Source: a virus
Lineage: Duplodnaviria > Heunggongvirae > Uroviricota > Caudoviricetes
DNA: 40,960 bases
Reading direction: 5' to 3' (one strand)
Virus record (IMG/VR): IMGVR_UViG_2534681674_000028
Span: 1-40,960 of that record
Part shown: positions 18,001-21,000 of the stretch, piece after piece
How the letters are laid out: each line of letters begins with the position of its first letter
How positions within the stretch are numbered: the stretch's first letter is position 1
Position numbers: made by a program

Positions 18001-21000
18001 GTAACAACGCCTGAATTTTTTCAACTGCATCAGGGGTGTCTTTCTCTACCCAGCGGAAAATTTTCTGGGTATTGCGAGCCAGGGCTTCCGGATGGCTGTC
18101 GTCATACAGTTCTGGGAACGTCATACCCAACTCAAAATAAGCCTGGGTTATTCCAGCTGCTGGAACTTTTTCGCCATCAGGACGCGCCCAGGCATTCATC
18201 GCCATGCGGATGTGTTCATGCTTGATTTTCATGAATCAAGCTCCTAGAAAGTGGTTGTGTTAACGTTTTGGTATCTTCCAGCTCGGGCCAAATATTCATC
18301 CAATCAAAAGGCCTTAGTTGCTGACGTGTAACTTCACCATTACTGGCTCGCTCAATAAGGACACATAACGATGCCCCTAACACTTGACCTTTACTCAATG
18401 CCTTTCTTAGATAACCGATGCTGGTACCACACTCACATGCAAACATACGCTGTTCATCTGACGAAAGAGAATTGAGAAATATTCTTAATTCTTCCATAGC
18501 TACTCCTTAGTAAACACAGCAAAGAATACCCACAGGTAAACAAAAGTCAATACCCACAGGTTGTTTACCTTGCGGTAATCGCATCTATTATTTACCTATG
18601 GACAAATATGAATTTAGACGACAGCAACTCATCAAAATTCGTGATGAGAAATGCGATGGTAAAGCGGTTAACGTGGCCAGAAAGATCGGGCGCGAGCCTT
18701 CTTATGTATCAAGAATGTTGTACCCAGAGGGGAAAAAGGGAAAAAAACGGATCGCTGATGATATGGTGGAGATTATCGAAGAGTCCTTTGGGTTACCCCG
18801 GGGATGGATGGATGGTATCGTTTCATCATCAACGAACACAGCCTCCAGTTATGAAACAAGGGTTCTAACGCCACGACAACGTATTTTTTTAGATCTCTTA
18901 GACGAACTGCCAGAAAGTGAAGCGGATAAATTATTAAAAACTCTTGAAGAGAAAAAACAGTATTACAATATGATCTACGAAGAAATCCGTAAAAAGAAAG
19001 CACAAAACGCATCATAGCTCACCAAACAACTAGTCACCAGTTAAGACACCGCAAAAAATTTACCCATGGGTATTTACTTTTTAAATACCTATGGGTATCC
19101 TTCTTTTCATACCAACCCACCCCGCCCCACAGAATGCAGGGCAATACTTCGAGTTACCAGGCAGTGGTCAGGGGTTAAGTAGCCAGCCCGAGGCGTAAGA
19201 ACATGACGGCAGGGTTCAACTTTAATAACTATGCAGCAGGTTTTTGTTCCGCTACCCCGGCGTTAAGGGGAAATGAGGTCAGCATGGATACTATCGATCT
19301 TGGCAACAACGAATCTCTGGTATGTGGCGTGTTTCCCAATCAGGACGGCACGTTTACCGCGATGACGTATACCAGAAGCAAAACGTTTAAAACTGAAGCT
19401 GGCGCGCGTCGCTGGTTAGCCAGAAACACTGACTGATGAGGTTGACGATGGAATTTAAAGATTTACCTCCTTCAATCCAGGAGATTGCAGCACACACACT
19501 TCGTCATCGTCTGAACGAACTTGAATTGGAATCGGTAACGAAAAAAGACACTGATAATATGGCTCGTAATGTGCGCGATGCGTTTACCGGATTGTATTTC
19601 TGTGCGTCTATAAATAAACACGACTCAGAGAGTGTGGCAAATAAAATTGCAGAAACGACAGCGCAAAACATCAATACGAAACCAACGGAAGAAGAAATTG
19701 ATCAGTTTGCTCATGATGCTGGTTTAAAAAACAAGAAAGAAAAATCGCCATATGCGGGGAACATGTTTGTTTATGACAATCTCATCAGAATTCGTGGCGA
19801 AATTCCGGCGGAATACCTGGCAAGAGTCCATCAGGCATTGCTTAAAAATTTGGAAACAGAATTATTTGATGGCAACACTAACGGTTTCTTCATGGTATCA
19901 GGCCTTGAGAAAGACTGGGATGCAGAAAAACGCTGGAATGTTGCTACATGGTTATTCAGTAACAGAGCCGCTGCACTGGAAGCTTCGGCATGTATTTGCA
20001 GCCTGTTCTTAACAGACCACAAATATAATCTGGATGTGTACAGTTATATTTACGCTGAACACGGTCCACTCTGGATTGACTGGTAATTATAAGGAAACAC
20101 CAGCAGGGCCGCGGCGACCAACAGAACGATTAAAATCAATAATGCCATTATAAAGGACATTATTTAATTTATCGTCGAATGCTGATTCTGTGAGCCTCAA
20201 CTCTGAATGAGTTTTTAATAACCCTGATTGCCTGAGTTGATTTACCAGGCATTCAATCTGTTTTTCAATAAGCGGATTTCTTTTTTTGTTTGGCATTTTA
20301 TCCTCCATTGAGGTTCTGGGTTAAAAATGGAGACCAACACGCTGTCACGTGTGGTCGTGCGCCGGACACGGATAAGAATCCGGTACTGACAGTTTACTGA
20401 AAGGATATTTCCCTGAAAAGTCAGTGCATAACGCGAAAGCGTACGGCGAAGCTCTTTCCCTTAGAAGGCTTGTCGTTAGATTTCTTCGAACGTGCGCTTC
20501 CGGTTGTGGCACTCCGCGAAATGGCGCGGCGGTAAGTATGGCGGGGTTATTCCTTCCCCATTGAGGACACCGGGTTGTCAGGTTGACCATACGCTTAAGT
20601 GACAACCCCGCTGCAACGCCCTCTGTTATCAATTTTCTGGTGACGTTTGGCGGTATCAGTTTTACTCCGTGGCTGCTCTGCCGCCCTTTTTAAAGTGAAT
20701 TTTGTGATGCGGTGAATGCGGCTAAGCGCACGCGGAACAGTTAAAACCAAAAACAGTGTTATGGGTGGATTCTCTGTATCCGGCGTTAATTGTTAACTGG
20801 TTAACGTCACCTGGAGGCACCAGGCACTGCATCACAAAATTCATTGTTGAGGACGCGATAATGGAAACGTTATTACCAAACGTTAATACGTCTGAAGGTT
20901 GTTTTGATATTGGTGTTCTGCTCAGTAACCGGGAGTTTACTGAAGATGCCATTAACATGAGGAAATATGAGCCTTATCTGCTCAATGATAATTCCATACT

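Follow-up and report, generated by a model that had tools for sequence, protein, structure and literature searches.

The best-described relative of the locus considered here is the dicBF operon of the prophage Qin in Escherichia coli K-12, in which the repressor gene dicA is followed by ydfA-ydfB-ydfC-dicF-dicB-ydfD. A single DicA-repressed transcript runs from the promoter dicBp through ydfABC-dicF-dicB, experiments having found no internal promoter (PMC10448788), and it is cut by RNases III and E, yielding the small RNA (sRNA) DicF (PMC10448788; PMC5069750). Investigating 40,960 nucleotides (nt) of a Caudoviricetes record in IMG/VR (IMGVR_UViG_2534681674_000028, positions 1 to 40,960; this whole stretch is called the window, and all coordinates are window positions unless a locus is named by an L-number), we observed the same layout and apparently the same control logic of repressor and operators, but a different content between ydfA and DicF: the genes for a protein of 212 amino acids (aa), p212, and for an antisense-encoded protein of 69 aa, p69, replace ydfB and ydfC. 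The C-terminal domain of p212 and p69 move together as a single recombination cassette and are still paired in distant Salmonella-type prophages.

Two further groups of described systems invite comparison. As sieB/esc/sas of phages P22 and lambda illustrate, lysogens can express a gene that lies antisense to a pL-type operon, whose transcript then serves as the antisense RNA of that gene (PMC12197685). The Rac prophage (ydaG-ydaF, sieB, kilS-kilR) likewise has a DUF1391 gene followed by a gene on the opposite strand, the stops of sieB and ydaF overlapping by 4 nt. SieB is a membrane-associated protein of roughly 160-190 aa, whereas p69 is much shorter, soluble and basic; it has no membrane segment, its maximum 19-residue Kyte-Doolittle hydropathy being 0.22, and tblastn of p69 against the Rac locus found no similarity to SieB or anything else there. 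The other group, linked to our locus by an analogy of architecture only, comprises the polymorphic toxin/immunity cassettes (CdiA-CT/CdiI, Rhs, colicins), which likewise combine a constant N-terminal part with interchangeable C-terminal parts, each having its own small adjacent open reading frame (ORF). In contrast to these, p212 and p69 are cytoplasmic phage early proteins with no secretion signal or toxin domain, and the partner gene is convergent instead of lying downstream on the same strand.

The dicBF-type operon and the genes in its variable slot

The genes under study occupy the promoter-proximal end of an early operon of the Qin dicBF type (pL-like), which belongs to a Qin/Rac-like lambdoid prophage that is integrated beside an ompW remnant. 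The order is repressor, operator palindrome, DUF1391 gene (the YdfA orthologue), p212, antisense p69, DicF precursor, DicF, dicB, a ydfD-like gene, exonuclease, xis and int (Table 1); as in a dicBF-type operon, the ydfA orthologue comes first, and DicF lies downstream on the same strand, followed by dicB and the ydfD-like gene. Identity with Qin amounts to 90% for YdfA, 98% for DicF and 67% for DicB. A likeness to Qin ydfABC had been pointed out in the preliminary description of this DNA, and the relationship turns out to be closer than was claimed there. DNA homology with Qin ends at 19427, the end of ydfA, and restarts at 20356; p212 and p69 thus fill the place of ydfB and ydfC. In chromosomes of Shiga toxin-producing E. 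coli (STEC) carrying identical DNA, RefSeq annotates the same three genes, with p212 and p69 both 'hypothetical', in the order YdaT-like and Cro-like genes (both minus strand), repressor, DUF1391, 212 aa, 69 aa (minus strand), dicB, DUF1482, exonuclease, excisionase, integrase and ompW remnant.

Judged by its sequence, the first of the three genes is a YdfA/YdaF orthologue of the DUF1391 family, its product being 86% identical with YdaF of Rac. The frame is open from a first ATG at 19203, which would give 77 aa; the conserved domain (PF07151, residues 29-75 of this frame, 100.3 bits versus a cut-off of 27.3) and the RefSeq gene model both start at M28, that is, at 19284. The approximately 50-aa ORF described earlier is present, the start given there, 19203, being that of the longest open frame; the statement that none of the three proteins is recognisable holds for p212 and p69 and fails for this one.

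The 212-aa ORF downstream of the repressor, also described earlier, was found in its place. Its start codon is preceded by GAGG 6 nt before 19448, and a second possible start, the ATG at 19436, shares bases with the stop codon of the gene before it (TGATG). The protein is acidic (isoelectric point, pI, 5.18) and soluble, with no hydrophobic segment of membrane type. Equally real is the convergent gene for a basic protein, with its strong ribosome-binding site: p69 has a pI of 9.74 (11 Lys and Arg versus 7 Asp and Glu), its start codon ATG (20296-20294) is preceded by GGAGG at 20306-20302, and its stop codon directly abuts that of p212, tail to tail. All three ORFs are real genes under purifying selection; the ratio of non-synonymous to synonymous substitution rates (dN/dS) between E. 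coli variants is approximately 0.25 for p69 and approximately 0.2 for the C-terminal half of p212 (range over both ORFs 0.2-0.27), which shows these two to be true coding genes.

The families phrog_751, phrog_2151 and phrog_4274 match the 50-aa protein, p212 and p69 end to end (E 2e-36, 1e-146 and 1e-51), but all of them are annotated 'unknown function', and membership adds no mechanism. Homologues of p212 come from Escherichia and Salmonella only, all annotated hypothetical, and those of p69 only from Escherichia, E. albertii and Salmonella. Searches of Pfam (E up to 10), NCBIfam and PADLOC with p212, p69, their sub-domains and the alternative partner ORFs gave chance-level matches only, sequence profile searches of the PDB with the p212 C-terminal domain and p69 gave no match, and Foldseek returned nothing at E < 0.01 for p212 against BFVD or for p69 against the PDB. 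The AlphaFold2 models are of low confidence: a helical N-terminal part with a beta-beta-alpha-beta-alpha-beta C-terminal part for p212 (predicted local distance difference test, pLDDT, 61.2) and two helices for p69 (pLDDT 69.4). Remote-homology and structure-prediction searches, then, bear out that p212 has no informative family or fold match, and homology with a housekeeping-type phage protein, which would have spoken against the earlier idea of exclusion or host-takeover genes, was not found either. A literature search found no functional study of DUF1391, of 'Ybl81' (the name of p212 in some records) or of these accessions.

An exchangeable cassette and its minus-strand leader

p212 is a protein of two parts, in which a constant N-terminal helical module (N-module) is fused with an exchangeable C-terminal domain. 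In the family alignment, an N-terminal part present in two alleles is followed by the low-complexity linker and a nearly invariant C-terminal stretch of approximately 115 residues. The whole protein matches a single PHROGs family, while residues 1-50 to 1-75 match four others as well, each likewise of unknown function, and most of the 35 clusters related to p212 that were retrieved in an exhaustive search of 1.84 billion representatives share just residues 1-55 (a 548-aa repetitive protein among the 35 proved spurious).

The C-terminal domain and p69 are tightly associated. At all IMG/VR loci encoding p69 (73 of 73), a gene with the p212 C-terminal domain is adjacent, convergent and tail to tail; from locus to locus, the type of repressor and the allele of dicB differ. 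Conversely, 73 of the 76 complete loci with the C-terminal domain carry p69. Comparison with prophages of the L225 type delimits what is exchanged: homology is lost at 19655 (p212 codon ~70) and returns at 20291, slightly inside the start of p69; in between, these prophages have a 308-bp segment with a different C-terminus and an unrelated convergent ORF of 64 aa, which uses the same GGAGGATAAAATG start region. At least three other cassettes of this kind, each a C-terminus with a convergent small ORF, occupy the same slot, namely 112 aa + 64 aa, a 135-aa protein with a 77-aa partner (for example, in PPompW_132418) and a 109-aa protein with one of ~91 aa, and rarer pairs also occur. The N-module is encoded at 502 IMG/VR loci.

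The association extends to distant homologues. In the Salmonella-type proteins P0178, P0173 and P0195, the C-terminal domain is 33-38% identical with that of p212 by BLASTP (27-31% over a MAFFT alignment), the N-terminal domain of P0178 and P0195 differs from that of p212, and P0173 has an inserted HTH_3 domain. Their genes reside in prophages that have an integrase-repressor-Cox switch and are integrated at several chromosomal sites. Each is met by a convergent homologue of p69 (42-53% identity) overlapping it at the 3' end; the features QL..SGLLK..S.L, F..KL and a C-terminal R..PAG..L tail (GRRGPAG in p69) are conserved in these homologues, and adjacency and orientation are kept in all four Salmonella-type sets (L004, L160/L161, L163/L164). 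In two of these loci (L161 6783-6870 and L164 7582-7669) a C4 antisense RNA (74-77 bits) and a 'Derepression' (PF25738) protein come after the cassette, the C4 module holding the position which DicF and DicB have in the E. coli prophages.

A separate observation concerns L152, L146 and L156, in which an antisense gene of ~172 aa (3526-4161, minus strand) lies between a p69 remnant and the DicF precursor; its product has a coiled coil and a zinc-ribbon-type CxxC...CxxC motif, with no match in Pfam.

Upstream of every convergent ORF, whatever its product and in both genera, lies a conserved sequence of ~100 nt, which folds on the minus strand into the hairpins H1, H2 and H3. In H3, CUCCAU pairs with AUGGAG, so that GGA, the opening triplet of the Shine-Dalgarno (SD) sequence GGAGG, is covered. 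Standard pairs make up 93.4% of the cells in the alignment of the leader versus 31-47% in slid controls, and its covariation score of 0.258 (versus 0.115) was reached by none of 500 shuffles; H3 shows an A-U to U-A swap, and H2 several compensatory pairs. The G-U pairs favour an RNA of the minus strand over the operon transcript (65 of 72 versus 51 of 72 in H1, 29 of 31 versus 17 of 31 in H2). A covariance model finds the leader opposite the N-module gene in nearly all loci searched, but where the convergent ORF is absent (K-12 Qin, the 124-aa class, an Stx2 phage) what is left is H1, H2 and, of H3, the anti-SD half alone.

Such partial leaders look like relics. In Qin, the minus strand immediately past the ydfC stop (L002 3049-3142) still has both H1 and H2 together with the anti-SD half of H3, but no SD sequence, start codon or ORF, which suggests that Qin once carried, and then lost, a convergent gene. 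The Stx2a-converting phage VT2phi_272 (L157 3501-3944) encodes an N-module protein of 147 aa between DUF2303 and PAPS-reductase genes in its early-left operon, and here as well a relic leader (H1, H2) follows the N-module gene with no convergent ORF.

Table 1. Features of the dicBF-type early operon, in window positions (residue numbers for parts of p212)
Feature	Position	Strand	Remarks
Immunity repressor, 139 aa	18598..19017	+	phrog_5736
Left operator pair TACCCATGGGTA / TACCTATGGGTA	19061..19097	.	between repressor gene and ORFs
DUF1391 gene, 50 aa	19284..19436	+	first gene of operon; phrog_751, PF07151
p212, 212 aa	19448..20086	+	phrog_2151; 'Ybl81' in some records
p212 constant N-module	residues 1-58		MEFKDLP...NVRDAFxGLY, two predicted helices
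p212 linker	residues ~59-95		low-complexity
p212 C-terminal domain	residues ~96-212		alpha/beta, ~115 aa; only in Escherichia and Salmonella prophages
Exchangeable cassette	19656..20290	.	p212 residues ~70-212 and whole p69 body
p69, 69 aa	20296-20087	-	phrog_4274; convergent with p212
Structured leader of convergent gene	20293..20395	-	RNAalifold, three hairpins
Leader hairpins	H1 20361-20384; H2 20335-20347; H3 20303-20332	-	
DicF precursor region, untranslated	20397..20634	+	93% identity with K-12 Qin DNA
DicF sRNA, cell-division inhibitor	20635-20686	+	Rfam RF00039, 75 bits versus gathering score 48
DicF terminator hairpin	20669-20684	+	
dicB, cell-division inhibitor	20861..21049	+	NCBIfam NF049927, 114 bits versus cut-off 100
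ydfD-like DUF1482 gene	21046..21234	+	followed on the same strand by exonuclease (820 aa), excisionase, integrase

Candidate function and alternative explanations

The repressor region bears on when the plus-strand genes would be expressed. The 139-aa repressor resembles DicA only in its C-terminal ~50 aa (24.5 bits, far under the cut-off) and has no HTH match in Pfam. The 12-mer TACCYAYRGGTW occurs at 18527 and 18551, between the divergent regulators, and at 19061 and 19086, just past the repressor gene, where 0.02 matches would be expected by chance; these copies form palindromic, operator-like sites of 12 bp on both sides of the repressor gene, so that a second operator set after the repressor, proposed earlier, does exist. 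As RNA, the left pair gives a hairpin of 16 bp (-22.2 kcal/mol, z = -6.7) with the U-rich tract UCCUUCUUUU behind it, and from this we infer that it ends the repressor transcript and marks the site of a dicBp-like promoter. With hairpin and U-tract between repressor and ORFs, the plus-strand genes would sit at the place of the lambda N/pL operon and not at that of rexAB. By analogy, the plus-strand genes should be off in the lysogen, because the homologous K-12 operon is DicA-repressed from dicBp; of such repression by the adjacent regulator, K-12 DicA is the only known case (PMC10448788), and the window encodes a different repressor protein.

From its position in the sequence, a role of the locus in exclusion or host takeover appears plausible. 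Tentatively, and at slightly less than an even chance, we favour a combined reading in which p212 and p69 form a cognate effector/partner cassette with reciprocal, antisense-coupled expression, following a logic like that of sieB/esc. While the repressor sits on the operators, the plus-strand genes would be silent, and p212 would be made only on derepression, as part of an early transcript which must cross the antisense of p69 in order to reach DicF and DicB. p69 would come from a minus-strand transcript of its own, probably in the lysogen, as is typical of accessory genes that lie antisense to lytic operons (PMC7067206). On neither strand was a terminator-like site found between p212/p69 and the DicF terminator; because none separates the two genes, their RNAs would overlap and their expression would be reciprocal, brought about by transcriptional collision and an RNase III-sensitive duplex as in P22 sieB/sas, the sieB/sas/esc region being a precedent for such an antisense-coupled arrangement (PMC12197685). 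The acidic p212 would carry an effector or sensor domain, which the basic p69 would bind or counteract (their complementary charges, pI 5.2 versus 9.7, support a pair), and together they might give the prophage an exclusion/escape-type or host-takeover switch of swappable specificity.

Several points weigh against this proposal. A consensus scan found no convincing sigma-70 promoter for p69, and the best candidate, TTTTCA-17-TAAACT at 20419-20391, matches at 8 of 12 positions, lies outside the output of that scan and is not convincing either (a minus-strand match of the scan at 20324-20295 was rejected, as it overlaps the p69 start codon). In three of the 76 loci (L146, L152, L156) the p69 body (window 20133-20294) is precisely deleted and p212 intact; p69 is therefore dispensable for a prophage carrying p212. 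N-module proteins also exist with no convergent partner, in the 124-aa class and in VT2phi_272. Within E. coli, finally, the co-occurrence of p212 and p69 could be plain linkage inside a cassette flanked by conserved recombination sites.

This last point leads to the main alternative, which we regard as possible, if on the unlikely side: p212 and p69 may be two unrelated accessory genes sharing a recombination hot-spot, p212 early lytic, p69 independently expressed in the lysogen and comparable with sieB, with no functional link between them. The variety of contents which the slot accepts would fit well, comprising ydfB/ydfC in Qin, sieB in Rac, the 172-aa zinc-ribbon gene and ORFs of 64, 77 and 91 aa, as would the retention of p212 in derivatives that lost p69, and conserved flanks on both sides would carry any content between them as a unit. 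Against it stands the persistence of the pair at 33-38% (C-terminal domain) and 42-53% (p69) identity in Salmonella-type prophages, whose left flank is different (Cox, another N-terminal domain) and which always retain the same tail-to-tail overlap. This pairing, kept across deep divergence and different left flanks, is what chiefly leads us to favour a functional link over mere linkage.

Alternatively, the minus-strand product could be an antisense RNA damping leaky dicBF transcription, with the p69 ORF incidental. The conservation of H1 and H2 even where no convergent ORF follows (K-12 Qin, the Stx2 phage) agrees with this view, and so does the overlap of transcripts which the missing terminator would impose; we nevertheless consider it improbable, since the dN/dS of p69 is 0.25, its homologues across genera share the SD sequence, the start codon and 42-53% protein identity, and H3, the SD hairpin, is intact only in front of an ORF. 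A role as antisense RNA and a role of the p69 protein are, moreover, not mutually exclusive. A conventional type II toxin-antitoxin pair of p212 and p69, in either assignment, seems highly improbable: a small basic protein beside a larger acidic one, with conserved adjacency, and the HTH_3 domain of the homologue P0173 would suit such a pair, but the genes are convergent and not co-directional, p212 is kept where p69 is deleted, and no toxin-antitoxin family was matched in Pfam, NCBIfam or PADLOC. Hardly credible, and already disfavoured, is a reading built on the likeness to lambda rexAB drawn in the preliminary description, in which exclusion genes would be co-transcribed with the repressor and made in the lysogen, for although the genes share the repressor's strand and lie directly downstream of it, the operator pair and the terminator-like hairpin intervene, the first gene is the orthologue of ydfA, whose operon in K-12 was found by experiment to be DicA-repressed, and PADLOC-DB, Pfam and NCBIfam gave no match of p212 or p69 to RexA, RexB or any other catalogued defence protein.

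Beyond the single locus, a wider proposal extends the idea of a cognate cassette, although we consider it rather unlikely in its full form. The N-module proteins and their convergent small ORFs might constitute a previously undescribed polymorphic system of lambdoid prophages, in which a constant docking module would carry interchangeable C-terminal effector domains and the lysogen would make the small protein cognate to each domain from a shared antisense leader that gates translation; it would thereby determine the specificity of superinfection exclusion/escape or of host takeover where prophages of pathogenic E. coli and Salmonella compete.

Distribution and further observations

The dicBF operon and DUF1391 were known before; the p212/p69 pair, the architecture of a constant N-module with a variable C-terminus and a convergent partner, and the leader masking the SD sequence are new. 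As accessory genes in a lambdoid early-left operon, these new elements are of a known kind. Of 5,426 complete E. coli genomes, 594-600 (~11%, about one in nine) carry the cassette, with up to four copies per genome, and its hosts include O157:H7 EDL933, where it stands beside a different repressor, as well as STEC of O145, O103, O111 and O26. Among 50,697 records of isolated phages there was no full-length p212 and no p69, and the species-representative genomes of GTDB held no relative of p69 or of the p212 C-terminal domain. If p212 and p69 indeed are a cognate pair for exclusion/escape or takeover, this would help to explain the competition among co-resident lambdoid prophages of STEC. An antisense gene with an SD-masking leader inside the DicF/DicB transcript would, in addition, be a possible further layer of control on toxic prophage genes, and the architecture of the cassette offers a simple route to further candidate pairs.

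Some minor observations concern the surroundings of the cassette. A minus-strand ORF of 95 aa at 20345-20632 is not a gene but conserved non-coding DNA of the DicF precursor, present in K-12 and in other prophages too. The 820-aa exonuclease (21327-23789) has an Exonuc_VIII region (116 bits) at its N-terminus and an Rv2179c-like 3'-5' exoribonuclease domain (227 bits) at its C-terminus, and it lacks the RecE nuclease domain of Rac.

Elsewhere in the window, the anti-GcvB sRNA AgvB (4063-4124, plus strand, Rfam 92.5 bits), STnc100 (4125-4333, minus strand, 175.6 bits) and a tRNA-like match (4453-4512, minus strand, 37 bits) form a cluster that looks like a typical prophage sRNA locus of enterohaemorrhagic E. 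coli. Three ALIL pseudoknots (116-121 bits) were found at 10758-10875 (minus strand), 26992-27108 and 30905-31021 (both plus strand); as ALIL are frameshift elements of the IS3 family, the window contains at least three copies of insertion sequences.

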